From a phage: 64,000 nt of DNA. A program made the translations under genes and the position numbers. The stretch lies in the sequence record PZ386957.1, one strand, 5' to 3'. A model generated the notes under the pieces. That model had not been told where the DNA came from and made no database searches. It saw only the letters and a program-made list of their open reading frames with translations. This document shows positions 24,444-45,384 of this stretch, one piece after another (positions within the stretch are counted from its first letter, which is position 1; the number at the start of each line of letters is the position of its first letter).

Positions 24444-26591
24444 TTATTCTCGTCCATTTGTATAGTAGTGTTTGAATCGCCCATAGCCAGTTTCAATAGA
24501 CATATCTTTCTGTCGGACAATCGCCCAATAGCCATTGCATGAATCTTGCAAATACAGATCCTTACCTTTTAGGAACTCGTTAAAGATCGTAATCTGCCAA
24601 TCATAATAGACGGCATCAGCGAGACTATCCATCCAACCATGTGGATCATCCATCAGTTCGACAAGCTCATCGATAACCCAATATGGACACGGGCTAAATT
24701 TACCTTTACTAAAATCATTGAACAAGGTAACAAGTTTAACTTCCGGTCGCGGTTCATCCGGCTGCACAGGTCGTTTATTAACCACAACCTGTACATATTT
24801 CGTATACCCGATGATTTCGCCGGAGTCAAGAGTATCGTTATTGTTCTTATCTGCATAAGCCACAAAACGATAAACACCGGAATCATTTATTGTTGCATTA
24901 GCTTTACGGTAAATCGGCACGCGAGAATCAGCAATAGGTAATTTAACACCAGCTTTGCTAAACTCATAGGTAGGTACATAATCAGCCGGAGGCTTCAACA
25001 TGGTAGCCTCAAGAACAAGCGGTTCACCTTCCGTAATCTGTACCGGATGCGGACCATCAAATTCCATATTAGGCACTACCTCAACATGGTAGGTAGCGCG
25101 TGCTGCAATATCGTAATCGGTATGCGCACTATATGGATCTTTACTCGGACTATCGCGGTATTCATGCGACCAGATACCGTTATGGTCTCGGTCTGCGGAA
25201 TCAGTGATCTTATACTCTTTCGCTTCAATAGGCAAATCTGCGACTTTAACATCATTTTTCAGAATTACTAATGAACGCGTTTGAGTCGGATCACCGCTTG
25301 CTGGCGGTTCTGGATCGACGATCTTAATTACAATCGGTTCACCAATCTCAATATTACGATAATCATATTCTTTATCGTAAATGTCAAGCATACGGCGGTC
25401 ATAGAACAAAGGACGTCCGGTCGGTGTTCTCTGCGGATCATCATCACGCGCGGGAGCCACCAACAGTTGAAGTGCTACGCTATCGTCATATTGCAATTCA
25501 TTAAGCGTAATGCGGTCATATCCCGGATCACCGTATTTCTTGCTTTGGAGTTGCTTACCGCCTAGCATCCACGTAAAGTAAACATTATTTGCAAGCATAC
25601 CATAATGGCGGTTCCATGAGTTATCCGCTGGTAATACTGGCATATCAAAGTTTACTTCCGATCCAGAAGGATAACGAAATTCGATTGCTGCAAAGTCATT
25701 ACGGAAAAATTCGTTTTCCTTAACTTTGACAGTAAATCGGTGTCGCTGCCCTTCAATGAATGATTCACCAGCACCAGGTCCATTAACCACTTTATAGGAG
25801 CGAACGCAAGCTACATATTCACCTGCATCATTTTCGGTAGCATGTTTGGTTGCATAGAGTGTTTTGTTGGTAGACTCATAAACAAGAGTACCGTCGCCAC
25901 GCTCTAAGCGATACCTTACAATGGTATGCTCTGCGTCATTAGGCGCATCATCTTCTACCGTGAAATAAGCTGGTGCATATTTCTGGACATTGAATACTGC
26001 GGGATTTTCCTTAATATCGGCAACAAACGGATAAACAAATTTAACGTCGCCGTGTTCGTCGCTCAATTCCATTCGGTAATTACCGGAAAATTCAGGCCAT
26101 GCAAATTTTGCAATTTTAAATTCACGATGGTCTAATCCCAGATCACCATCAATGGAATCAACGAGGCCATTATTATAATACAGGTCAACCGAAATATTAG
26201 CCGGAATATTACTACGGAAAACAATTTTTGCTTTAATTTCATCACCAATATCAAAAGACGTTGGAGGATGAACATATTCGACAAAGACATTATCGAATAA
26301 ACTAAAGGTAAAGTTTTCCGTGCCGATATCTACGGATTCGCCAGAAAAATTTTCATCATCTTGCGCATAACCACGAAGGTTAACAGACCATCCGGTTTTA
26401 TCCTCTTCTTTCACTGAATCCAATACATAGGAAGGAGTTGCAGTAGTCGCAATGACCTTATTGTCTTTCTTCCACGTAAAACCCTTTTTAGGTTTAGTTG
26501 GTTCAGGGGATTCCCCAGCAAGGGAACAAGCGAAAGTATGAGGAAGCCAAATGGTAGTATTAACGCTAGTATCTTTATTTTCTACTGGCAT
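24444..26591 (-). CDS. Large protein with Ig-like repeat signatures
   Basis: 715 aa; repeated D.G.Y.C motifs (DAGEYVACV, DSGVYRFVA) typical of Ig-like beta-sandwich domains. Confidence 0.6.
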   Translation of the reverse strand: MPVENKDTSVNTTIWLPHTFACSLAGESPEPTKPKKGFTWKKDNKVIATTATPSYVLDSVKEEDKTGWSVNLRGYAQDDENFSGESVDIGTENFTFSLFDNVFVEYVHPPTSFDIGDEIKAKIVFRSNIPANISVDLYYNNGLVDSIDGDLGLDHREFKIAKFAWPEFSGNYRMELSDEHGDVKFVYPFVADIKENPAVFNVQKYAPAYFTVEDDAPNDAEHTIVRYRLERGDGTLVYESTNKTLYATKHATENDAGEYVACVRSYKVVNGPGAGESFIEGQRHRFTVKVKENEFFRNDFAAIEFRYPSGSEVNFDMPVLPADNSWNRHYGMLANNVYFTWMLGGKQLQSKKYGDPGYDRITLNELQYDDSVALQLLVAPARDDDPQRTPTGRPLFYDRRMLDIYDKEYDYRNIEIGEPIVIKIVDPEPPASGDPTQTRSLVILKNDVKVADLPIEAKEYKITDSADRDHNGIWSHEYRDSPSKDPYSAHTDYDIAARATYHVEVVPNMEFDGPHPVQITEGEPLVLEATMLKPPADYVPTYEFSKAGVKLPIADSRVPIYRKANATINDSGVYRFVAYADKNNNDTLDSGEIIGYTKYVQVVVNKRPVQPDEPRPEVKLVTLFNDFSKGKFSPCPYWVIDELVELMDDPHGWMDSLADAVYYDWQITIFNEFLKGKDLYLQDSCNGYWAIVRQKDMSIETGYGRFKHYYTNGRE

Positions 26592-26612: not shown

Positions 26613-27011
26613 CTAAGCCAGCTTAGTGAGTTTATAGATGGTTTTAAAGCATAGAACTTTAATATCGTCTAAAACGCTCTGTAGAGAGCTATCAACATCA
26701 TTATAAATCTCACTTGCCATTTGCGCTAATTCCTGCAAATAGGCAACTTCGCTAATCTCCTTTCGGACGACCAACGTCGGTTGATATCTTCCGGTAATAC
26801 CGATATTAGTTTCCGTGAAAGTATCAACCAATTCTTGCATTTCAAGATAGAACTCTTCTAGCGCCTTATGTTTTGCGTAAGACCCCGGACCAGTTACCCC
26901 AAAATGCGCAGAATGCATATAAGTAACGCTCATTAGGCATTCACCAATAAAGCGGTCCACATTATTAGCCTTTCCTTCATCGGAAGTTTTTCTAAATTCG
27001 CTGAATTTCAA
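26613..27011 (-). CDS. Hypothetical protein
   Basis: 132-aa ORF. Confidence 0.5.
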   Translation of the reverse strand: MKFSEFRKTSDEGKANNVDRFIGECLMSVTYMHSAHFGVTGPGSYAKHKALEEFYLEMQELVDTFTETNIGITGRYQPTLVVRKEISEVAYLQELAQMASEIYNDVDSSLQSVLDDIKVLCFKTIYKLTKLA

Positions 27012-27301
27012 TTTCGTCGATTCTCCACATTATAAGCAACTACAAATTGCTTCGCAGCATATTCGCCCATCATAAAACATTGTCTTGCATCCATACACCT
27101 ACTACGTGCATATGTTTTCATTAAATGCTCATGAAATTTTTGGCTAGTTTCAACGGATGGTTGGATCTTGCTTATATAGACAATCATCGCACCATCAAAA
27201 TAATCGGTAAAATCACCGACTGGATTATTTTGGTCGGCACTTACACTACCGACTGCCATTAGACAAAATGCTGCGGTTAAAGTTTTACGAATAAATGACA
27301 T
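27008..27301 (-). CDS. Secreted/periplasmic protein with N-terminal signal sequence (rI-like position)
   Basis: 97 aa; N-terminal hydrophobic LTAAFCLMAVGSVSA; sits next to tk where T4 carries rI (97 aa); TATAAATA late-type promoter upstream. Confidence 0.5.
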   Translation of the reverse strand: MSFIRKTLTAAFCLMAVGSVSADQNNPVGDFTDYFDGAMIVYISKIQPSVETSQKFHEHLMKTYARSRCMDARQCFMMGEYAAKQFVVAYNVENRRN

Positions 27302-27334
27302 AAGTCATTCCCCCAGATTAAAAAAGTTCAAGTA

Positions 27335-27342
27335 TATTTATA
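27335..27342 (-). promoter_or_regulatory. T4 late-type promoter TATAAATA
   Basis: Exact TATAAATA on minus strand about 34 nt upstream of the 27301 start. Confidence 0.45.
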
Positions 27343-27363
27343 ATCTAGGGTATATTTTAACCC

Positions 27364-27960
27364 TTATTGGGTAGTACCATCAGTAAAATGTTTACGACAA
27401 ACAGAAACATATTTATCCTCGGCACCGACTTCTATTTGAGCACCATCACGGATAACGTTTCCATCTTTATCAACACGAAGGACCATTGTCGCTTTCTTGC
27501 CACAATGACAGATACCCTTCATTTCGACCAGTTTATCAGCCAATGCCATTAATGCCGCAGATCCTTCAAATAAATTTCCCTGAAAGTCGGTGCGAAGTCC
27601 ATAGCACAAAACAGGGATATTGGCATCATCAACCAGTGCACATAAGCCTAAAACATGTTCTTTAGTCATAAATTGGGCTTCATCCACAAATACAGCATCA
27701 GGACGCCAGCGTTCCGGTCTACGCTTACCTAGTGATTCACGGTACACAAGGTCGAAAAGATCATCAGATTTAGTGAATGTGATCGCTGGAGCACTTAGAC
27801 CAATCCGTGAAACAACTTCACTTTCTGAATCTCGATTATCAATCGCTGGTTTAAGAATTAATACTCGCATATCACGTTCTGTATAGTTATAAGCACTTTG
27901 TAACAGGGAAGTAGACTTACCAGCGTTCATAGATGCATAGTAGAAATATAGTTGCGCCAT
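27364..27960 (-). CDS. tk: Thymidine kinase
   Basis: 198 aa; Walker A MNAGKST; FVDEAQF; CHCGKKA zinc motif; matches T4 Tk throughout. Confidence 0.92.
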   Translation of the reverse strand: MAQLYFYYASMNAGKSTSLLQSAYNYTERDMRVLILKPAIDNRDSESEVVSRIGLSAPAITFTKSDDLFDLVYRESLGKRRPERWRPDAVFVDEAQFMTKEHVLGLCALVDDANIPVLCYGLRTDFQGNLFEGSAALMALADKLVEMKGICHCGKKATMVLRVDKDGNVIRDGAQIEVGAEDKYVSVCRKHFTDGTTQ

Positions 27961-28253
27961 TAATTAATCTCCAAAAATCCAGCAAGACCTAAACCGATAT
28001 AAGTCCAGATACCAATGAAAAAGATGTTAATACTCATGGCAAGGATAAACCCTTTTAGCGTTTTAGGATACCCAACCCAATATTCCCGACCATCTTCTAA
28101 CCGGATCAGTTTATTGCCTTGCGAGTCCATATCAACTACAACATGTTTATTTCGAGATTGCAATAGATATTGGTTTACAATCTCTACACCAGCCATAATA
28201 CAAATAACGAAAAGAAAAGTCCACACAACAAGATTAATGATAGTCTCAAGCAT
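27960..28253 (-). CDS. Membrane protein (2 TM)
   Basis: 97 aa; N- and C-terminal hydrophobic helices. Confidence 0.5.
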   Translation of the reverse strand: MLETIINLVVWTFLFVICIMAGVEIVNQYLLQSRNKHVVVDMDSQGNKLIRLEDGREYWVGYPKTLKGFILAMSINIFFIGIWTYIGLGLAGFLEIN

Positions 28254-28500
28254 TTTCTATCACCTCAACCCAATCCGGTAGTTCTTGAAAGACTCCATCG
28301 CCTTCATGATGTTTACAGCCTTTATTGGTGCAATACATCCACCAATCCCACATTCCCCACGGTAAACGCTGCATATCGTCGTTGCAGCAAGTGAAGATAA
28401 TAGGCCAACCACATCTAACACATCGGCAGTTTTCCTTCATGTGAGCGCTATTAGGCTTCATATTCCACCACCACAATATTGATATCCGGCGTAAAATCAT
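28246..28500 (-). CDS. Cys-rich small protein (putative Zn-binding)
   Basis: 84 aa; CRCVRCGWP..FTCCNDD..YCTNKGCKHH. Confidence 0.45.
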   Translation of the reverse strand: MILRRISILWWWNMKPNSAHMKENCRCVRCGWPIIFTCCNDDMQRLPWGMWDWWMYCTNKGCKHHEGDGVFQELPDWVEVIENA

Positions 28501-28906
28501 TAATGATTTCTTCTACGCATTCCCATTCTAGGCCGCCAATCCCACAACCAATTTTAGGAATATAGAACGGCTTAACAGTACCTTCAAATGCGAAGTTAAG
28601 TTGTTCGAATCCACGGATGATAGCGGAATATTCAGCATTTGGTCCTGGACGGAATTGCGTATAAAGATTAATACCCATCCAGTTATAACCATTAACGGTA
28701 TGATGCCAAACATTAAACTCGCCTAGCTTACTAGCCGTTCCTCTCGGTGTCTTTTTGTCAGTAGCCAATGCTTGTGGGAACTCTTTTGCGATCTTTGCAG
28801 CAATACCAGCGCCCATAGTATGAAAACAATTACAACCATGAATCAAATGACCGTTTCCTTGTTTAAACAGGGCGATGAGATCGCCCTTTACAGTATCAAT
28901 AATCAT
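28451..28906 (-). CDS. Macro-domain protein (TARG1/OARD1-like ADP-ribose hydrolase fold)
   Basis: 151 aa; GDLIALFKQGNGHLIHGCNCFHTMGAGIAAKIAKEF fits the TARG1-type macro core (H-C-x-x-x-MGAGIA). Confidence 0.6.
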   Translation of the reverse strand: MIIDTVKGDLIALFKQGNGHLIHGCNCFHTMGAGIAAKIAKEFPQALATDKKTPRGTASKLGEFNVWHHTVNGYNWMGINLYTQFRPGPNAEYSAIIRGFEQLNFAFEGTVKPFYIPKIGCGIGGLEWECVEEIINDFTPDINIVVVEYEA

Positions 28907-28921
28907 AATATAAACCTCTCA

Positions 28922-29281
28922 TTAGTCACGGGAAGACAACCCAGCCATAAAACGGCTTAAAAGCGTGTCACGATAAGCAAAGCATAATTGCTTATCAGGG
29001 GCAGTATCACACAGGTTGCGTTTTGTTTTAGCAAAGCTGGCAATACTCAGATCCCATGCTCGATTTTTTCGTTTTTCGTCTCGGCCTTGTTTGTAGGCTT
29101 CGTCGAGTTCAAGTGCGATAAAATCGCTACACATGTTATCATCATCACAGAAGGTTTTAATGATCTTTTTGTTGATCTCAAATCCTTTGTATTCGAATTT
29201 TGGATAAGGTCGCTCATTACTAGCAAGCGCACCAGCAGAGAACATCATAGCAATCATAGCAATTATTGTCAACTTTTTCAT
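28922..29281 (-). CDS. Secreted protein with signal peptide
   Basis: 119 aa; MKKLTIIAMIAMMFSAGALA signal peptide. Confidence 0.5.
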   Translation of the reverse strand: MKKLTIIAMIAMMFSAGALASNERPYPKFEYKGFEINKKIIKTFCDDDNMCSDFIALELDEAYKQGRDEKRKNRAWDLSIASFAKTKRNLCDTAPDKQLCFAYRDTLLSRFMAGLSSRD

Positions 29282-29288
29282 ATATTCC

Positions 29289-29879
29289 TCAATAGCGTTT
29301 AGTTTTAAGGATGCCTTTACTCTTTAAATGGTTAGCCTTTTTTAGTACATCATCAGCATAACCCAATCCGGCTTTATAGTTCCATCCAGCATTGTAAGAA
29401 GCTAGCGCGAGTCGGATATTACCGTTTCGAACATCCAGCCAGTATGCTAACTCATCCATCGCGTAGAATGCAGAAACCTCGCGATTCATGATAAAGTTAA
29501 TTGTCTGGCGATCACTCATTTTAACACCGCGCTTTGCATTTTTCGCTTTCACCGTTTTAAGGTAATTTTGAAATAATCCATAAGCATGATGATTTTTCTT
29601 TGGTGCTAAGTTTGCACCCGCGCTTGATTCTTGCCATGCGATACCCGCCAGGATGTGACCTAAACCCTTTCCGTTATAGCGAATATTCGGATGGTCATTT
29701 TTCAACTTACCGCTTTTCTCGAATTGTTCGCCGTATTGATAGGCGAAATGTAAATTATCTAGTTGGTGTGCTGTAAAGTTGTCTATCGGCGCTTTTTTGA
29801 TCGGTGCGCTAGTCGATGCGTGTGCAGCACCAACGGCTAGTGACAGACTCAATACTATCGCTTTTAGAACTTTTAACAT
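29289..29879 (-). CDS. Secreted lytic transglycosylase (SLT domain) with signal peptide
   Basis: 196 aa; signal peptide LSLAVGAAHAS; SLT motifs WQESS, GLFQ, SYNAG. Confidence 0.7.
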   Translation of the reverse strand: MLKVLKAIVLSLSLAVGAAHASTSAPIKKAPIDNFTAHQLDNLHFAYQYGEQFEKSGKLKNDHPNIRYNGKGLGHILAGIAWQESSAGANLAPKKNHHAYGLFQNYLKTVKAKNAKRGVKMSDRQTINFIMNREVSAFYAMDELAYWLDVRNGNIRLALASYNAGWNYKAGLGYADDVLKKANHLKSKGILKTKRY

Positions 29880-29913: not shown

Positions 29914-29942
29914 ATAATATAGCCCTATCACCAGAAAGTCAA
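29914..29942 (-). promoter_or_regulatory. Promoter TTGACT-17-TATTAT
   Basis: Minus-strand read upstream of the SLT gene; RBS CAGGAG. Confidence 0.55.
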
Positions 29943-30727: not shown

Positions 30728-30757
30728 ATATTACTACCCCCCGTTTCATGTTGTCAA
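30728..30757 (-). promoter_or_regulatory. Promoter TTGACA-18-TAATAT, -10 inside inverted repeat GGGGGTAG...TACCCCC
   Basis: Minus-strand read upstream of 30389-30700. Confidence 0.55.
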
Positions 30758-33099: not shown

Positions 33100-33489
33100 T
33101 TATTTTGGATCTGGGTAAGCAGAACTCAGCAATTCAAAATGCACACCGTCTTTGAATGCCAAAAAATCCCCGCCCCATTTAATCGGAATATTCAATTCCT
33201 TACTAGCTTGTTTAAATGCATCAGCGATCATTCGGTAATATTTCATGTTCCATGTATCCTTATCTTTCGGATACGCTACAACATCAACCGCGAAGCCATG
33301 AAGATGGCGAGATTTCATAGTCTTAGACTTACCTTCCGCAAAATATTTCTTCTGCGTTTCCAGACTGCGCACACCTTCCGTAATGCCAAAATCTACAGGA
33401 GTTAATTCAAGTGCGCGAGTCGCCACCTTAACCAGATCTGGATGCACACCAACAAGTCGGTCTTTACTTCTTTGAGATAATTTAAACAT
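33100..33489 (-). CDS. Peptidase M15-type cell-wall hydrolase (putative endolysin, L-Ala-D-Glu peptidase-like)
   Basis: 129 aa; zinc-peptidase motifs SRHLHGFAVD and DGVHFE. Confidence 0.7.
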   Translation of the reverse strand: MFKLSQRSKDRLVGVHPDLVKVATRALELTPVDFGITEGVRSLETQKKYFAEGKSKTMKSRHLHGFAVDVVAYPKDKDTWNMKYYRMIADAFKQASKELNIPIKWGGDFLAFKDGVHFELLSSAYPDPK

Positions 33490-33517: not shown

Positions 33518-33709
33518 TTAGATTCCGGTGATCCTGCATAGAGTTCTTGTATTAGCACCAATCAGGATAGCATTAACGACAACCATTCCCCAATCAACCC
33601 ACGGATTATTATAAATGCTGAATCCGTTTGCAAGGCCAAATACAAGCATTCCGGTACACATACTCAGAGCAATAATCAACATCACGGTAAAACCAAATGC
33701 AAATTTCAT
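33518..33709 (-). CDS. Small membrane protein (2 TM)
   Basis: 63 aa, almost entirely hydrophobic. Confidence 0.5.
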   Translation of the reverse strand: MKFAFGFTVMLIIALSMCTGMLVFGLANGFSIYNNPWVDWGMVVVNAILIGANTRTLCRITGI

Positions 33710-33710
33710 A

Positions 33711-33941
33711 TTATTTTCCTTTTCTCTGTTTACGTTTATAAAAGTAATACATTACCTCATCGCGTCCGGTGATCCAACATGCTAGGGCAGTAAACAAGTT
33801 TACAATTCCCAACACACCTACGGATGCGGCGCTATCAACGGACATAGGAACAGTAAAGGCCATAGCTAGCATCGCAACGCCACAAATGATATTAAGCACC
33901 ATTATAATAAGACCGAAGAAAACCATTGTCAATCCTCCCAA
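33711..33941 (-). CDS. Small membrane protein (2 TM)
   Basis: 76 aa hydrophobic with basic C-terminus. Confidence 0.5.
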   Translation of the reverse strand: MGGLTMVFFGLIIMVLNIICGVAMLAMAFTVPMSVDSAASVGVLGIVNLFTALACWITGRDEVMYYFYKRKQRKGK

Positions 33942-34120
33942 ATAAGAAAACCAACAATCACACCCATAATAAGAGAGGATGCACCACTAATCAAGCAACC
34001 CGCGCCAAGTGATTCCCACCAGATCAGGGAAGCGACAATAACGCAAAATCCCCAGACTACCGCAATTATAACATAGACAAACATAATCCAAAATAGATAC
34101 TTGTTCATAATAAATCCCAT
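33929..34120 (-). CDS. Small membrane protein (2 TM)
   Basis: 63 aa hydrophobic. Confidence 0.5.
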   Translation of the reverse strand: MGFIMNKYLFWIMFVYVIIAVVWGFCVIVASLIWWESLGAGCLISGASSLIMGVIVGFLIWED

Positions 34121-34293
34121 TCACCAATCAAATATGAAAATAGCCAAATAAACAGAAACGAGACAATTGATCCAGCAAGCAAAATAATATTAGAGAATCC
34201 GCCGTTTATCCAGTCGATCAAACAGAATATTCCAGTATAGAAACACAACCCAATTACAAAACAGACGATAAGCAACCATAGGTAAAACGCCAT
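34105..34293 (-). CDS. Small membrane protein (2 TM)
   Basis: 62 aa hydrophobic. Confidence 0.5.
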   Translation of the reverse strand: MAFYLWLLIVCFVIGLCFYTGIFCLIDWINGGFSNIILLAGSIVSFLFIWLFSYLIGEWDLL

Positions 34294-34515
34294 AGAAAGC
34301 CCTCCAGTGAGCTAAATTAGTGCGGGTAGTACATTCTCCTACCCGCGTTGTTAATCATCGTATAGCGTGTTCTATGGCGACTCCTACAAGGCCACTAACA
34401 ACACCAGTACAGAAAGCAACTAGAGCATTCATTCGGTCTTTAGGGATCATTGCAAACAGTACAACACCCACACAGAAAGCCATCACCATTGAAGTTAACA
34501 TTTGTTCCATCATTA

Positions 34516-34854
34516 TTACACCTTTAAAGTCATAGACGCATAAACATTAATACCAGGCCAATTGGGATCACAATTATACTCAACATCCCACAAATAAAGC
34601 GGTTTGGATGTATCAGCCAAGTTTTTAAAATCTTCTACCCACATTTCAAGGCTATAGGATGGATAAACTAGGCTATCATATCCACCGTAACGTTGGCCTA
34701 CTGGTCTGTCAGTAAAAACTACCTCAAGATCCGGTAATTCTTTTTCTAGGATAACCGCCAGCGCATAAATCAGGCGGTCTTCCTTGTTACGCTGCCGTAG
34801 GACCGTTGTCAGTTGGTTCTTCTGGTTCACTAGCAAGTACCTCCACATTTTCAC
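34516..34854 (-). CDS. Hypothetical protein
   Basis: 112-aa soluble ORF. Confidence 0.45.
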   Translation of the reverse strand: MKMWRYLLVNQKNQLTTVLRQRNKEDRLIYALAVILEKELPDLEVVFTDRPVGQRYGGYDSLVYPSYSLEMWVEDFKNLADTSKPLYLWDVEYNCDPNWPGINVYASMTLKV

Positions 34855-35125
34855 AGAATGAAATTTTCACGGACACAATTTTACCATAAGTGAAGAATGA
34901 ATATACATTATCGAGATATTCAACATCACCTACAATCACATCAAACTGCGGGTCAGCCACTGCCGCAACATATTCTACCAGTTCATCAAGAGAATGCAAC
35001 TTAATTTCATCAATTCGGCTATATTTGGTTGCATCTTTAATTTTAAAACCACGTTCTTTCAGCTTATCAATCAGAATTTCACGCGGAGTTTCAAACAGTT
35101 TGCTCATAATATAATCCTCACACAA
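34787..35125 (-). CDS. Hypothetical protein
   Basis: 112-aa ORF; start likely the internal MSKLFETP. Confidence 0.45.
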   Translation of the reverse strand: MCEDYIMSKLFETPREILIDKLKERGFKIKDATKYSRIDEIKLHSLDELVEYVAAVADPQFDVIVGDVEYLDNVYSFFTYGKIVSVKISFCENVEVLASEPEEPTDNGPTAA

Positions 35126-35129
35126 TTAA

Positions 35130-35324
35130 TCAATGGTCAATAATCTTACACATTACAATTGAAAGAACAAAGACAGCAACCCACATATAGATCCCAGCAA
35201 TCAGGGCAATTTCAATCTCACAGTATCCAAGAAGTACAACAGGAATAAAAACAAACATACAGACCAGCGCAAAGAAACTAGCAAAGGCGCTCGAAAATCC
35301 GATGGCAGTATTAGTAATCTTCAT
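35130..35324 (-). CDS. Small membrane protein (2 TM)
   Basis: 64 aa hydrophobic. Confidence 0.5.
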   Translation of the reverse strand: MKITNTAIGFSSAFASFFALVCMFVFIPVVLLGYCEIEIALIAGIYMWVAVFVLSIVMCKIIDH

Positions 35325-35330
35325 ATTAAG

Positions 35331-35528
35331 TCATCTCACAGTTTTATAAATGAAAACAATAAAATCCCAGACAAAAAAGACAGTGAAAATAATCATCGTC
35401 AAGACAGTAAACACTGTCAGATTTTCATCGTTAGTTAATTCATAGTCGCCCATCCATACAATCACAAGATATAGCATTGAAAGAACGGAAGCACCTACGA
35501 AGTTGAAAAACATATTCTTGAGCGTCAT
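35331..35528 (-). CDS. Small membrane protein (2 TM)
   Basis: 65 aa hydrophobic. Confidence 0.5.
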   Translation of the reverse strand: MTLKNMFFNFVGASVLSMLYLVIVWMGDYELTNDENLTVFTVLTMIIFTVFFVWDFIVFIYKTVR

Positions 35529-35529
35529 A

Positions 35530-35712
35530 TTAACAATCCTCGCGGCTTAAGTCAACTGCAATTGCATACAGCATAATGAATATGCTAGCAGATCCTAGAA
35601 TCAATGCACCTTCACATGTTGTAACCCGCTCGTCAAAGTATAGCATCAGCCATCCGAGGATGTTAAAGGCGCATACAGCGCCTATGTTGGCTAACCAATT
35701 AATCTTTTTCAT
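35530..35712 (-). CDS. Small membrane protein
   Basis: 60 aa hydrophobic. Confidence 0.5.
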   Translation of the reverse strand: MKKINWLANIGAVCAFNILGWLMLYFDERVTTCEGALILGSASIFIMLYAIAVDLSREDC

Positions 35713-35720
35713 ATTGTACC

Positions 35721-36048
35721 TTAGAAAGAAACTGTTTTCAAGAAATCCAGATTTTCAGTGCCGAAAGTAGAAAAGTAGTGTTTTCCTTTTTCGGTTTTAG
35801 AGAAAGCGATTGTCTTCTCTACATGGTGACGGAAGCCAGACAGACGATCACCCAGATCAAGGCGGCAAGCGTAAGTAGTGCCGTTTTCGAAAGTAACCTC
35901 GATTTGAGTTTTGTCATATTCGCCTTCATAGGCTTTTGCTGCGGCGTCCTGTGCTTTACGCTCGAAGTCTTCGAAGTGGAATACTTCGTTTGCGTTAGCG
36001 AATACGGAAGATTCAGAGAAGATAACTTTAACAGATACTGGTTTCATT
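35721..36048 (-). CDS. Hypothetical protein
   Basis: Start reassigned to MKPVSVKV after promoter/leader 36085-36113; about 109 aa. Confidence 0.5.
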
Positions 36049-36084
36049 TTGATACTCCTTTGTGTGTTTCGTTTCGATGGGTGT

Positions 36085-36113
36085 ATTATGCTATACACCC
36101 TATCGTATGTCAA
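36085..36113 (-). promoter_or_regulatory. Promoter TTGACA-17-CATAAT, -10 inside inverted repeat GGGTGTAT...ATACACCC, CATCGAAACGAAACAC leader
   Basis: Minus-strand read upstream of 35721-36048. Confidence 0.65.
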
Positions 36114-36120
36114 CAACTTT

Positions 36121-36309
36121 TTAGTCTTTTTTCATAATTTCTAGGGCAGCTTCTACCGCACCTTTCCAACCTTCCCACATGATGGACATGGTAAGGAAGT
36201 TAAAGCACCCGCAGGAATCGGCCTTTTTAGAAATAAACCATTCTACAAACTCTGTGCTAATGCCATTCTCTTTAGCAGATTCGCGCAGTTGTTCAATCTG
36301 GTCTTCCAT
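36121..36309 (-). CDS. Hypothetical protein
   Basis: 62-aa ORF. Confidence 0.45.
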   Translation of the reverse strand: MEDQIEQLRESAKENGISTEFVEWFISKKADSCGCFNFLTMSIMWEGWKGAVEAALEIMKKD

Positions 36310-36318
36310 AGTATCACC

Positions 36319-36507
36319 TCAACACTTAACGTTATTCAAACGGTTTTGAAAATAAACATAACATGCATAATTCTGTTTTGGCTGTACCGTATCAGATAAG
36401 CACGCTTTTACCGCTTCGCGATCCGATGGATCTACACCCTCAGCTTTAAGTAGTGCTAAGATCTGGTAGTAGCGTTCTCTCAGTTGCGCTAATGGTTTCT
36501 CTCCCAT
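36319..36507 (-). CDS. Hypothetical protein
   Basis: 62-aa ORF. Confidence 0.45.
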   Translation of the reverse strand: MGEKPLAQLRERYYQILALLKAEGVDPSDREAVKACLSDTVQPKQNYACYVYFQNRLNNVKC

Positions 36508-36516
36508 AATACCCCC

Positions 36517-36738
36517 TTACAGTTGATCAGCAATGTAAGCATGACAAGCTCGAAGTTTCATTAATGCACTACCTTTCACTTCGCCTACGATGTTCATAAC
36601 TTCTAAGCGGTCAGATGGATTCATTTTAGAGCACCAGATCTGGTTAGCCAGTTCCAGCTTGCTCATATTAGGTTCCATCTCAAACAGTTCACGCTCAAAG
36701 TCGATAATTTCTTTTGCTGCTTCTTTAAAGTTGATCAT
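36517..36738 (-). CDS. Hypothetical protein
   Basis: 73-aa ORF after promoter 36768-36796. Confidence 0.5.
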   Translation of the reverse strand: MINFKEAAKEIIDFERELFEMEPNMSKLELANQIWCSKMNPSDRLEVMNIVGEVKGSALMKLRACHAYIADQL

Positions 36739-36767
36739 TTTGATTCTCCCGTTCAGTTGATGGGTGT

Positions 36768-36796
36768 ATTGTAGGGGAGTTGTCCTCCCCTGTCAA
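36768..36796 (-). promoter_or_regulatory. Promoter TTGACA-17-TACAAT, spacer palindrome GGGGAG-GACAA-CTCCCC
   Basis: Minus-strand read upstream of 36517-36738. Confidence 0.6.
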
Positions 36797-36806
36797 CACT
36801 TTTTTA

Positions 36807-36992
36807 TTAGAAATATGCAATATAGTTTGCCAGTCCTACAGAGTCATCATTCGGCATTGCTTTTACTGCCAGTTCAAATCCTGCTTCAACTTTCTGTTTA
36901 GCGGATTCTTCGTTATAACCCCAGATCACCAGAATAGCTACTACGTTTTCTTTGCTTACTGCTTTCAGTGCTTTAGTGATGCGACGTGCCAT
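36807..36992 (-). CDS. Hypothetical protein
   Basis: 61-aa ORF after promoter/leader 37039-37068. Confidence 0.45.
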   Translation of the reverse strand: MARRITKALKAVSKENVVAILVIWGYNEESAKQKVEAGFELAVKAMPNDDSVGLANYIAYF

Positions 36993-37038
36993 AATTTGAT
37001 TCTCCTAGTTAGAAAGTGTATCTCGTTTCGATGGGTGT

Positions 37039-37068
37039 ATTATGCTATAGACCGGATCTGGTGTCAAC
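37039..37068 (-). promoter_or_regulatory. Promoter TTGACA-18-CATAAT with CATCGAAACGAGA leader
   Basis: Minus-strand read upstream of 36807-36992. Confidence 0.55.
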
Positions 37069-37091
37069 AACTTTTTTAAAAAAATTTAGGT

Positions 37092-37120
37092 AATAAAAAA
37101 GCCACTCCGAAGAGTGGCTT
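37092..37120 (-). terminator. Intrinsic terminator capping the ORF-free region
   Basis: AAGCCACTC-TTCG-GAGTGGCTT then TTTTTTATT. Confidence 0.7.
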
Positions 37121-37269
37121 ATAGGGAAGGTAGCGAATCTTCCTTGTCTCCAACCTGCTAGCGGCCTAGCAAGTGAATGCTTTAGCGTACCGGATTACCC
37201 CCATACGCTGTAATAAATGCGGCTAGGTGACGTCCAAATCATTCTAACCGCGCTGTTTTTAGTTCACTA
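37121..37269 (-). ncRNA. Putative structured small RNA (ORF-free, terminator-capped)
   Basis: About 150 nt with no ORF on the coding strand; several local hairpins; ends in intrinsic terminator 37092-37120; T4 carries stable RNAs in the analogous region. Confidence 0.25.
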
Positions 37270-37488
37270 TTATTTATATAGCTTTCTATCGCTACGTTTC
37301 CGGTCTTCTTCCTTGATACAATTAAATGCATCAAACAGACACATACCGCTGATAGTGAACATGATCAGGTTTTCGACGATATCCCACGTTTTAGCCCCTG
37401 TGCAGATATTCCAAACAGTCATAAAAGCAAATAGTGCAGAAGAGATCACAAGCATGATACTTGCTAAGATATAAAAAGTCATTTTCAT
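37270..37488 (-). CDS. Small membrane protein (2 TM)
   Basis: 72 aa hydrophobic. Confidence 0.5.
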   Translation of the reverse strand: MKMTFYILASIMLVISSALFAFMTVWNICTGAKTWDIVENLIMFTISGMCLFDAFNCIKEEDRKRSDRKLYK

Positions 37489-37679
37489 GGTTTTACCTCA
37501 ATTCTTCGATATTCATCACACATCCACGCAGTAAGCAAGAATCCCATCACATAAGCAACAAAATACGTTAATGCTTCTTCTGGTTCGGTGCTATGCGCCA
37601 TCATCAGACCAGCGAGAAAGGTCTTAACAATTACATTTAAAATAATTAGCCACGCAAATAATTTCATCGTTTGCCCCAT
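37485..37679 (-). CDS. Small membrane protein (2 TM)
   Basis: 64 aa hydrophobic. Confidence 0.5.
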   Translation of the reverse strand: MGQTMKLFAWLIILNVIVKTFLAGLMMAHSTEPEEALTYFVAYVMGFLLTAWMCDEYRRIEVKP

Positions 37680-37906
37680 TTCGGACGAGATTTTTCAAAT
37701 TTATACATTCCGTAACAATCTCGGATCATCCACGTAACAAGAGCACCAGTCAATACAGAAAGTACACAGAAAAAGTAAAACGGTCCAGTTGCATTGTCAA
37801 CATGAGCAAGCCAGGTAAAGAAAGCACATGCTAAGAACGTAAAGAACATCATAAAACACAGGAAAGCGAAATATTTTATGCTACTCATAGCGCCACCATA
37901 CAACAA
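37664..37906 (-). CDS. Small membrane protein (2 TM)
   Basis: 80 aa hydrophobic. Confidence 0.5.
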   Translation of the reverse strand: MLYGGAMSSIKYFAFLCFMMFFTFLACAFFTWLAHVDNATGPFYFFCVLSVLTGALVTWMIRDCYGMYKFEKSRPKWGKR

Positions 37907-37991
37907 ATCATAAGAAAGCCCAACGCAATAAGAATTGCATCAAATTTAGTGAACTCCGGTCCACCTATCAACATCATTCGTTCTATCTCGT

Positions 37992-38237
37992 TCATAGCGT
38001 ACATACCCATCTGAAAGCTCCACATAAAGCGATCAGTAGACTAGGTATAAACGAGACTAAAACAAGATAACAAAAATCATCTAAGGTAACACCGGAATAG
38101 CTACCAACTGTAATCACACCGATGATCAGACACAGAAAGAAAACAAATGCAATCAGAAACAAAGTATTGCTAAACAGTTTAGTGATCATTAGACACCCCA
38201 CGACGGTCAATTTCAAAAACTTTCTTATCACCAACAA
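37992..38237 (-). CDS. Small membrane protein
   Basis: 81 aa hydrophobic; start may be internal. Confidence 0.45.
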   Translation of the reverse strand: MLVIRKFLKLTVVGCLMITKLFSNTLFLIAFVFFLCLIIGVITVGSYSGVTLDDFCYLVLVSFIPSLLIALCGAFRWVCTL

Positions 38238-43584: not shown

Positions 43585-45384
43585 ATGTTAATGATTAATA
43601 ACTCCGTTAAATGGTTTACCGGGATTGTGGAAAACAGGGAAGATCCATTGATGTTAGGACGGTTACAGGTCCGTATTCATGGTGTACACCCTTCATTATC
43701 CGCTCACGGTGATATACAAGGTTTACCGACCGAAGACCTGATATGGATTACTCCAGTACAAGATATTACAAGCGCGGCGATCTCCGGTATAGGCCAAAGT
43801 CCTACTGGTATTGTTGAAGGTTCAATGGTATTTGGTTTAGCCTTAGATGAACGTTATTTGAATTGCCTTATTCTGGGGACAATTGCAGGACAATATACAG
43901 AGCAACCATTAACAACCGAGGGATTTTGTGATCCGTCCGGTGCATATCCTCGCTATATCGGCAACGATGTTAATATTCTTGCTCGCGGCGGGGTTAATCC
44001 ATCAACGGGACAAACAACAAAACCTGATAGTGTCTATATTCGAGATGAAAACACTGGAGTTGCCGTAAATCCAGACGACGAGCCATTAGACCAAATTCCG
44101 GTTGACGATAACCCAGAATACACAATAGAAAAAATGTTGCGGGGCGATGAGGGATATCGCGAGAAATGGTATCTTGATTCAGAAGGATATCCGACAATAG
44201 GCATCGGGCATTTGATCATTTATAAGAAAACCAGTGATCTGGGTATTATCAATAATGAACTTTCTAAGCTGGTAGGGCGTGAAGTTACAAACGGAAGACT
44301 TACCGCCGAAGAAGTTAGTAAAGTATTTGCTGACGATATAGAAAAGACTCGTCGTGATATGCGCAAACATCCACGAATTGCACCTGTCTATAATAAATGT
44401 AATGCCTCACGTCGTATGGCATTAGAAAATATGGCGTTTCAAATGGGTGTTGGTGGATTGGGTAAATTTAAGAATAGTCTTGCTGCAATGCTGGCGGAAG
44501 AATGGAAACAAGCCTATGATGGATTACGTCAATCTGTATGGGCTAATCAAACTCCAGGACGCTCCAGCCGTGTTTCTAAAATTATTTTAACTGGTAACTT
44601 AGAATCATATGGCGTAATTGCTCCAAAGAAAGAGGAATCAATTTCGGATGATCCGCGAGCACGTTTAAGAAATGCCCGTATTGCTGCCTATAAGACACAG
44701 AGAGCAGAAGAAGACCCAGAAGCACCGTTTACCCCACAAGACACACGAATCATGTTTAAAGAGCCTAAGAGTTCGTATTCTGCAAGGTATCCTTATAACC
44801 ATGTGTACGAGTCAGAGAGCGGTCATATTATCGAGATTGATGATACTCCTTCTCATGAGCGATATCATCGTAAACATCCTTCTGGTACATTTGAAGAAAC
44901 CAGACCGGACGGAACGAGGGTAGAAAAGATTGAAGGCGATGACTATTTGATCGTTAAACAAGGCCGGAAAGTAAACGTTAAGGGTAATTTGCAAGTTGTT
45001 GTTGAAGGTGACGCGCAAGTTTATTATATGGGTAATGTTATGCAAACCGTTGATGGTAACGTCACTGAATTTATTCGTGGCAATGTTAATCAGACCGTTG
45101 AAGGCACTGCTAACATGCATGTTGTCGGTGATGTTATCGCACAGCTTGACGCTAATTTGACGGCTAATGTCAAGGGTAATGCTGAATTAATGATCGAGGG
45201 TAACACTACAGAGACAATTAAAGGTAACTATGATTTAACCGTTGAGGGTAATTTTAATATGACCGTCAATGGCACTAAATCAGATCAGGTTAATGGTGAC
45301 TGGTCCCGTAATTGTGGTGCAAGCGTTAAAGATATTGCATCTGGTACAGTTAAAATTGATGGTAGCCGTATTGATCTTGGGTGA
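43585..45384 (+). CDS. 5: Baseplate hub/cell-puncturing protein gp5 with lysozyme domain
   Basis: 599 aa; lysozyme motif GYPTIGIGHL; C-terminal beta-helix VxGxxxxx octapeptide repeats. Confidence 0.9.
   Translation: MLMINNSVKWFTGIVENREDPLMLGRLQVRIHGVHPSLSAHGDIQGLPTEDLIWITPVQDITSAAISGIGQSPTGIVEGSMVFGLALDERYLNCLILGTIAGQYTEQPLTTEGFCDPSGAYPRYIGNDVNILARGGVNPSTGQTTKPDSVYIRDENTGVAVNPDDEPLDQIPVDDNPEYTIEKMLRGDEGYREKWYLDSEGYPTIGIGHLIIYKKTSDLGIINNELSKLVGREVTNGRLTAEEVSKVFADDIEKTRRDMRKHPRIAPVYNKCNASRRMALENMAFQMGVGGLGKFKNSLAAMLAEEWKQAYDGLRQSVWANQTPGRSSRVSKIILTGNLESYGVIAPKKEESISDDPRARLRNARIAAYKTQRAEEDPEAPFTPQDTRIMFKEPKSSYSARYPYNHVYESESGHIIEIDDTPSHERYHRKHPSGTFEETRPDGTRVEKIEGDDYLIVKQGRKVNVKGNLQVVVEGDAQVYYMGNVMQTVDGNVTEFIRGNVNQTVEGTANMHVVGDVIAQLDANLTANVKGNAELMIEGNTTETIKGNYDLTVEGNFNMTVNGTKSDQVNGDWSRNCGASVKDIASGTVKIDGSRIDLG

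Follow-up and report, generated by a model that had tools for sequence, protein, structure and literature searches.

In phage T4 the gene regB is followed by vs.1 and vs, and the antiholin gene rI lies farther along in the same order of genes. T4 RI has a signal-anchor-release (SAR) N-terminus and a periplasmic domain, which binds the periplasmic domain of the holin T and blocks hole formation on superinfection. T4 Vs.1 (ORF 61.4; UniProt P13311) is annotated as a "conserved hypothetical protein", and T4 Vs (ORF 60.9; UniProt P13310; PHROG 1256) as a protein that modifies valyl-tRNA synthetase, a cytoplasmic function. The similarity of vs.1 to SLT enzymes was published by 2006, citing earlier PSI-BLAST matches for T4 (PMC1524935), and is already annotated in some genome records of vs.1. 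Here we analyze the corresponding locus in a 64,000-nucleotide stretch of phage DNA (sequence record PZ386957.1), referred to as the window throughout. A preliminary description of the window had singled out three open reading frames (ORFs) with N-terminal signal peptides as a group, one of them encoding a secreted SLT-type lytic transglycosylase.

We assign the three ORFs, on the basis of their sequences, as orthologues of T4 vs.1, vs, and rI, which are already known and conserved genes of the T4 family. In the reading that we consider probable, the window carries RB49-like versions of these genes whose products are all predicted to be periplasmic: the rI antiholin on the one hand, and an early, exported GH23-type Vs.1 together with an exported Vs on the other. 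Orthology, motifs, a predicted fold, conservation of the signals, and gene coupling support this reading, as do early RNA and protein of the T4 orthologues.

Orthologues of vs.1, vs, and rI in an RB49-like phage

By nucleotide identity (90-92% to Krischviruses), the window is placed in Krischvirus, i.e., among the RB49/Phi1/JSE-like members of the T4 family. When 4 kb around the locus served as query, 59 phage records matched at 80-95% nucleotide identity, with Krischvirus LF73P4 (92%) as the top match. Transcription is leftward throughout the region and GC skew is negative everywhere; the ORFs on the plus strand are short and overlap minus-strand genes. The gene order is regB, vs.1, vs, tk.4, small ORFs, tk, rI, and rI.-1. 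Because this order is the same in annotated relatives and in T4, and with homology in agreement, we identify the three ORFs as vs.1 (29289-29879, minus strand; 196-aa precursor), vs (28922-29281, minus; 119-aa precursor), and rI (27008-27301, minus; 97 aa), exactly where the preliminary description had placed its signal-peptide genes. Identity to the Phi1 proteins is 100% for Vs, 98% for Vs.1, and 75% for RI, and identity to the T4 proteins is 31%, 50% (full length), and 27%, respectively. No NCBIfam family matched any of the three.

RI matches the Pfam family Antiholin (PF24205; E = 1.6e-21, 76.4 bits, cut-off 27) as well as phrog_1246, "lysis inhibition" (E = 2.5e-23), and on these grounds we assign it as the antiholin orthologue, a regulator of lysis inhibition. 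It has a SAR-like signal at aa 1-22 followed by a predicted periplasmic domain, and C69 and C75 are invariant with T4 and Phi1. The T4 and window proteins thus have in common their family, a length of 97 aa, the signal/SAR-like segment, the cysteine pair, and the position between tk and rI.-1, with the 4-nt overlap between rI and the start of rI.-1 and the tk / rI / rI.-1 synteny kept; the window differs in lacking the rI.1 gene that T4 has between tk and rI. The holin gene is outside the region examined. RI has diverged from its Phi1 counterpart far more than have Vs and Vs.1, encoded a few kb away, which may mean that the antiholin evolves faster or has been exchanged.

The two genes accompanying the SLT gene had been thought to occupy positions where T4 carries lysis-timing or superinfection-exclusion factors. 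This holds for 27008-27301, which is the rI antiholin itself, but not for the 119-aa gene, which is vs and no known lysis-timing or exclusion factor; the T4 exclusion genes imm and sp lie elsewhere in the genome. The idea of a group is likewise correct only in part. All three signal peptides fall within seven genes, but rI and the vs.1-vs pair are two separate things and not a single functional module: the distance between rI and vs and the genes intervening (seven in T4, four in the window) differ among phages, which is why we reject one module of three genes.

Vs.1, Vs, and their signal peptides

The SLT motifs reported earlier are all present in the 196-aa protein, as W82-Q-E84-S-S86, G101-L-F-Q104, and S161-Y-N-A-G165, with Glu84 encoded by GAA at 29630-29628. 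Vs.1 matches Pfam SLT (PF01464) over aa 76-167 (26.2 bits, cut-off 21.3, E = 6.2e-6), a family also matched by 23 of the 24 Vs.1 family members, and phrog_600 with an E value of 6.5e-60. Residues E84, S86, G101, F103, Q104, Y162, A164, and G165 are invariant in the 24 homologues. An hhalign comparison with the C-terminal domain of E. coli Slt70, of weak statistics, sets IAWQESS on IARQESA and GLFQ on GLMQ, and so places E84 on the catalytic Glu of the Slt70 "RQES".

From the alignment of 24 sequences, AlphaFold2 gave a model with a mean pLDDT of 83. Foldseek against the PDB returned G-type lysozyme, GH23 chitinase, MltD, and Slt as the top matches for this model, with probabilities of 0.97-1.00 and E values of about 0.01-0.4. 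The GH23/SLT catalytic core would span aa 74-188, and the Pfam match leaves out a subdomain nearer the N-terminus (aa 35-70) that is also conserved. The predicted mature protein has 175 aa and a pI of about 9.9 (9.4-10.0 across the orthologues of nine phages). From motifs and model together, we classify Vs.1 as an SLT/GH23-type enzyme with its catalytic Glu in place and a predicted lysozyme-like fold. Its gene is then, as judged from sequence, the third muralytic gene of the phage, separate from gp5 with its lysozyme domain (43585-45384, plus) and from the M15 endolysin (33100-33489, minus), both of which are encoded elsewhere in the window, as the preliminary description had held. We also considered Vs.1 as a SAR or signal endolysin: an export signal is present, yet there is a separate M15 endolysin, and vs.1 sits in an early operon and not with lysis genes.

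Homologues of Vs.1 were found by tblastn in 2,034 phage records, covering T4-like phages of Escherichia, Klebsiella, Salmonella, Aeromonas, and Acinetobacter as well as Ackermannviridae and Felixounavirus. The distant homologues in the last two groups retain the E-S/E-L, G-x-F-Q, and Y-N-A-G signatures. A secreted phage transglycosylase of this kind is therefore not unusual, contrary to what had been supposed, being T4 Vs.1 with an SLT similarity on record since 2006 at the latest. The T4 and window proteins have the same signal peptide, motifs, and position between regB and vs; the window protein differs by 13 residues inserted behind the signal peptide (APIKKAPIDN...).

Cellular enzymes of the family are another close comparison. 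E. coli Slt70, P. aeruginosa Slt and MltD, and goose-type lysozyme share with Vs.1 the E-S, G-L-(M/F)-Q, and (A/S)-Y-N-A-G motifs, and family-1/GH23 enzymes have the lysozyme-like helical fold and a periplasmic location reached through a cleavable signal, both predicted for Vs.1. Unlike them, Vs.1 would be a single-domain mature protein of about 175 aa, with a phage-specific subdomain (aa 35-70) and without superhelical, LysM, or lipoprotein modules. Virion-associated phage transglycosylases such as T7 gp16 and PRD1 P7 also contain an SLT-type domain, but they are structural components that arrive with the virion and have no signal peptides, whereas Vs.1 is early, predicted to be Sec-exported, and made inside the infected cell.

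We scored N-termini with a signal-peptide heuristic that considers charged residues before the core, the mean Kyte-Doolittle value of the best 10-residue window, the absence of acidic residues from the n and h regions, and small-x-small sites after the core. The products of vs.1, vs, and rI all pass, with two Lys/Arg residues in the n-region, a 10-residue hydrophobic core averaging 2.4-2.6 on the Kyte-Doolittle scale, no acidic residue up to the end of the core, and small-x-small sites at positions 18-22. Vs.1 begins with MLKVLKAIVLSLSLAVGAAHA|ST, giving a signal of aa 1-21 (nt 29879-29817) and a predicted cut at AHA|ST. The N-terminus of Vs is MKKLTIIAMIAMMFSAGALA|SN, with a signal of aa 1-20 and a predicted cut at ALA|SN, and that of RI is MSFIRKTLTAAFCLMAVGSVSA|DQ, with VSA|DQ as the likely cut. 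Cleavage of the RI signal is nevertheless uncertain, because the paradigm of T4 RI is an uncleaved SAR domain.

The heuristic is passed by nine of the 110 ORFs that were called greedily in the window, and six of these nine are 63-81-aa proteins with long hydrophobic stretches resembling membrane anchors. The products of vs.1, vs, and rI are the only ones among the 110 that look as if they carried cleavable signal peptides. The occurrence of three such genes within seven consecutive genes out of 110 has a p of about 0.007, a post hoc figure. A signal N-terminus of the heuristic type is present in 24/24 Vs.1 relatives, and the homologues of Ackermannviridae, Felixounavirus, and Aeromonas phages have signal peptides too. 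For Vs, a signal peptide is found in all 14 full-length sequences of an alignment of 15 (alignment A5) and in T4 Vs. Orthologues translated from T4 and from Acinetobacter, Erwinia, Serratia, Klebsiella, and Salmonella phages all carry the signal N-terminus. This conservation is a more persuasive argument for predicted signal peptides than the heuristic alone.

Vs itself matches phrog_1256, "valyl tRNA synthetase modifier", with an E value of 1.8e-33. It has four invariant cysteines (C45, C51, C91, and C100), which are kept in 15/15 sequences of alignment A5. An exhaustive phmmer search with Vs of 1.84 billion representatives returned only 16 clusters, all of proteins of about 100-135 aa save one spurious repeat protein, and no fusion of Vs with an SLT domain was among them, so that they hold no Rosetta-stone evidence. 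A word-indexed homologue search with Vs found close relatives only, and a search of PDB sequences gave no match. Queries with the RB49-type and T4-type proteins matched 355 and 796 phage records, respectively. The AlphaFold2 model of Vs (pLDDT 78.7) has helices at 33-44, 49-71, 76-86, and 97-115, forming a four-helix domain (aa 33-115, mostly pLDDT > 90) in a mature protein of about 99 aa. T4 Vs resembles window Vs in size, signal peptide, its four cysteines, and its place after vs.1, and differs in lacking the segment PYPKFEYKGF that follows the signal peptide in the window. From these features, Vs looks like an exported, disulfide-bonded protein, at odds with its uniform label as a cytoplasmic modifier; the annotated function of T4 Vs conflicts with predicted export in the same way. 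We found no mention of a Vs signal peptide in the searchable literature.

In the window and Phi1, and in T4, Cronus, Muldoon, Ac42, KPN6, CGG4-1, and DLP1, phages of different genera, vs is the next gene after vs.1. The junction is a 7-nt gap in the window and Phi1, a 3-nt gap in Muldoon, and an overlap of 8 nt in T4, 4 nt in Cronus and Ac42, and 1 nt in KPN6, CGG4-1, and DLP1. From this arrangement, we describe vs.1 and vs as a conserved early gene pair that is predicted to be translationally coupled. In five of these phages, vs is followed at once by another gene for a signal-peptide protein, the third in the row (phrog_4957), its start overlapping the vs stop by 4 nt (L006:2279-2704, L007:1694-2110, L009:1733-2146, L010:1790-2182, and L011:1766-2167). 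The encoded protein has 130-141 aa and at least two cysteines and is present in those T4-like phages of Acinetobacter, Erwinia, Klebsiella, and Salmonella that we examined; the gene is absent from the window and from the T4 region, where we looked for it. In Acinetobacter phage DLP1, vs.1, vs, the third secreted-protein gene, a membrane-protein gene, and rI are contiguous. A comparison of Vs.1 and Vs for complementary charge was uninformative.

Promoters and neighboring genes

A consensus scan found a sigma70-like element, TTGACT-17-TATTAT (10/12 positions), at 29914-29942 on the minus strand, within the 85-nt spacer between regB and vs.1. Phi1 and Sf20 share this spacer at 98% identity; T4 differs in that vs.1 starts 7 nt after regB. 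A sigma70-like promoter for vs.1, proposed earlier, is thus present as an element, but it does not figure in the published list of RB49 promoters from hidden Markov models (HMMs), which predicts no early promoter in the regB/vs.1 gap (PMC1524935 supplement). The same list places a strong early promoter, Pe:52389 (score 34.8), upstream of ORF095 and regB (PMC1524935 supplement). At the equivalent position in the window, upstream of the ORF095-like gene and regB, the scan found an early-promoter-like element, TTGACA-18-TAATAT (30728-30757, minus; 10/12), and this is likely the main early promoter of the transcription unit regB, vs.1, vs, tk.4, and onward. Whichever promoter is used, vs.1 and vs are, as read from sequence, ordinary T4-type early genes for the host sigma70 polymerase; early sigma70-type promoters are the norm for such genes, and the promoter is not the peculiarity it was taken for. 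In time-resolved omics of T4, vs and vs.1 are both early at the RNA level and middle at the protein level, and T4 Vs.1 protein was detected (PMC9697503 supplement). For rI, the core of a T4-type late promoter, TATAAATA, can be read in the tk/rI spacer (27335-27342, minus). The RB49 list includes a late promoter, Pl:48756 (PMC1524935 supplement), which maps to this spacer through an offset of about +300 nt between RB49 and Phi1 and matches the TATAAATA site.

The Shine-Dalgarno sequence of vs.1 reads GGAG (29889-29886, minus). GGAG is the target motif of the RegB endoribonuclease, and here it stands immediately downstream of regB, as it does in Phi1, DLP1, and Aeromonas phage 31. We considered that the site marks regulation of vs.1 by RegB and did not adopt the idea, as the motif is not conserved: T4, Cronus, KPN6, and CGG4-1 have GAGG.

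Several neighbors are of separate interest. A macro domain is present in the tk.4 orthologue (28451-28906, minus; Pfam Macro, E = 3.4e-6), whose T4 counterpart has recently been given the name AdfM, as an anti-DarTG2 factor (preprint 10.1101/2025.11.20.689424). Next to it, an 84-aa ORF (28246-28500, minus) has a match to PF23895 (E = 6.7e-32), a zinc-binding domain of phages. The ORF as called shares 50 nt with the 3' end of tk.4, and its true start is therefore probably an internal Met. At this ORF the 4-kb stretch is matched in two pieces in Phi1 and most relatives and is about 190 nt shorter in the window, whereas LF73P4 matches in one piece; Phi1 has two annotated small ORFs there (ORF089 and ORF090). 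Between tk and tk.4, a 97-aa protein (27960-28253, minus; phrog_16027) has hydrophobic segments at both ends. Transmembrane helices are predicted at 4-26 and 68-90 of its RB49 equivalent, ORF088c (PMC1524935 supplement), and we classify it from sequence as a membrane protein.

Directly downstream of rI.-1, a 715-aa ORF (24444-26591, minus) gave a weak Ig_2 match alone. It is full-length in about six Krischvirus records, e.g., JK32 and G2248; Phi1 retains a C-terminal remnant (aa 648-715), and RB49, JSE, and most others a short N-terminal one (aa 6-41). It looks like an accessory gene of about 2 kb that was deleted in most relatives. Six small ORFs (63-81 aa; 33518-38237, minus) just downstream of the M15 endolysin gene have strongly hydrophobic N-termini and look like a cluster of small membrane proteins. 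In Aeromonas phage 31, the interval between vs.1 and tk.4, the place of vs elsewhere, holds a 75-aa ORF and then a 146-aa protein (L016:3368-3808) with a lipoprotein-like N-terminus, MKKSIATLIAIGMYGC..., that belongs to phrog_9490.

Predicted periplasmic roles and competing explanations

From these results we infer export and cleavage, enzymatic activity, a role in remodeling, and whatever concerns the action of Vs. RI, expressed from the late promoter TATAAATA plus early read-through, would reach the periplasm through its weakly hydrophobic N-terminal signal. There its C-terminal domain would bind the periplasmic domain of the holin and delay lysis (lysis inhibition). Vs.1 would be made early from sigma70-type phage promoters, exported by Sec, and cut after AHA21. 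The soluble, very basic protein (pI ~9.9) could then cleave the glycan strands of peptidoglycan through Glu84 from inside the periplasm, long before the holin triggers. In the manner of the soluble host Slt, it would remodel or loosen the sacculus instead of lysing the cell, a third wall-degrading activity besides gp5 (entry) and the M15 endolysin (exit). Vs would be exported likewise, oxidized to two disulfides, and act in the envelope.

Several points weigh against this account. Export of the three proteins is deduced from the heuristic and from conservation. The similarity of Vs.1 to SLT enzymes is marginal (Pfam 26 bits, Foldseek E ~0.01, weak hhalign statistics). Searches of PDB sequences found no match at E <= 1 with the Vs.1 family profile and none that was meaningful with the single sequence, and its kinship to characterized SLT enzymes appears remote for this reason. 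Because GH23 includes hydrolytic G-type lysozymes, sequence does not distinguish transglycosylase from lysozyme chemistry. In the searchable literature we found no vs.1 phenotype or functional study, only the 2006 comparative paper. The model of Vs had no informative structural neighbor, and its fold gives no functional clue. Furthermore, Vs.1 occurs without an adjacent Vs in Aeromonas phage 31, Slopekvirus Miro, Kuttervirus SFP10, and Felixounavirus IME338; since Vs is missing beside vs.1 in Aeromonas phages, Slopekvirus, Ackermannviridae, and Felixounavirus, Vs.1 does not need Vs. A catalytically inactive or merely peptidoglycan-binding Vs.1, its SLT resemblance vestigial, would fit the weak similarity to characterized enzymes. 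We consider this very improbable, as the catalytic Glu and the motif residues are invariant in 24 diverse homologues and the signatures persist in Ackermannviridae and Felixounavirus, the pattern expected of an active site under selection.

A further objection concerns Vs. It may instead be a cytoplasmic binder or modifier of host valyl-tRNA synthetase, with its N-terminus unused or only partly used for export and its adjacency to vs.1 functionally meaningless. The annotation as synthetase modifier is uniform, including that of PHROG 1256, and several phage groups have Vs.1 without Vs, as described above. The vs locus has reportedly been linked to modification of the cytoplasmic valyl-tRNA synthetase by Neidhardt & Earhart 1966, McClain et al. 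1975, Muller & Marchin 1977, and Marchin 1980. Classical in vivo effects of T4 infection in temperature-sensitive valS hosts point the same way. In a 2025 preprint, a T4 Δvs mutant formed plaques poorly on M9-glucose, a defect not seen on LB, which its authors explained through the synthetase as an effect on translation or nutrients. On the other side, the canonical n-h-c signal with an A-x-A-type site in 14/14 full-length Vs sequences and the four cysteines in 15/15 form a pattern typical of exported, DsbA-oxidized proteins and odd for a cytoplasmic factor. These features argue, on sequence grounds, against a cytoplasmic site of action. The vs gene is also flanked by, and to all appearance translationally coupled to, genes for secreted proteins in many phages. 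The 1986 T4 sequence record lists the ORF as "ORF 60.9", unnamed; the assignment of ORF to locus therefore postdates this record. The predicted mature T4 Vs is 11.0 kDa, close to the purified vs factor, reportedly of about 10 kDa; this would imply a processed, and hence exported, form. When made at full length with a His tag, T4 Vs was insoluble in the cytoplasm (PMC8076793). None of the evidence on a periplasmic or cytoplasmic Vs is decisive, and we regard the cytoplasmic explanation as rather unlikely while giving it real weight.

Vs.1 could also serve in superinfection or lysis from without, either by modifying peptidoglycan to keep incoming tails from penetrating or by clearing damage at entry sites, or it could be an auxiliary lysis enzyme that weakens the wall in advance for the M15 endolysin. 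Its early expression and periplasmic targeting would fit the timing of T4 exclusion functions, rI is contiguous with vs.1 and vs in DLP1, and the window endolysin is a peptidase, for which a glycan-cleaving partner would be complementary. No experimental link connects Vs.1 to exclusion or lysis, however, and T4 keeps vs.1 despite having a lysozyme endolysin. The proximity of vs and rI varies, as noted above for T4 and the window, and Vs.1 homologues occur in phage families where no rI was found beside the gene. We judge such a role clearly improbable and prefer the remodeling role of an early exported Vs.1.

A bolder proposal, tentative and in our estimate unlikely as it stands, builds on an analogy. 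T4 Spackle (gp61.3) is a small, secreted, helical disulfide protein that inhibits the gp5 lysozyme domain in the periplasm (PMC7677548). Vs is comparable by analogy only: it is small, early, signal-peptide bearing, helical, and of disulfide type, and its gene lies beside that of a muralytic enzyme. Vs may be a periplasmic protein, exported by Sec and disulfide-bonded, that cooperates with the co-translated Vs.1 or restrains it, and the textbook label would then be wrong. We set aside a Spackle-like inhibitor on structural grounds, as the Vs model shows no match to Spackle. Were the proposal true, either the assignment of the vs ORF to its locus would be a historical error or the association with the synthetase would arise outside the intact cell, and the minimal-medium defect of T4 Δvs would reflect unregulated cell-wall damage and not translation.

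As it stands, our result re-identifies three conserved genes of the T4 family and to that extent adds little. The label of Vs, which has been copied into many hundreds of phage annotations and was recently used to interpret a conditional-essentiality phenotype, is contradicted by the export signal and cysteines that its family conserves. Vs.1, with 2,034 records, is among the most widespread uncharacterized early proteins of large virulent enterobacterial myoviruses, and it is predicted to place a muralytic enzyme in the periplasm long before lysis.

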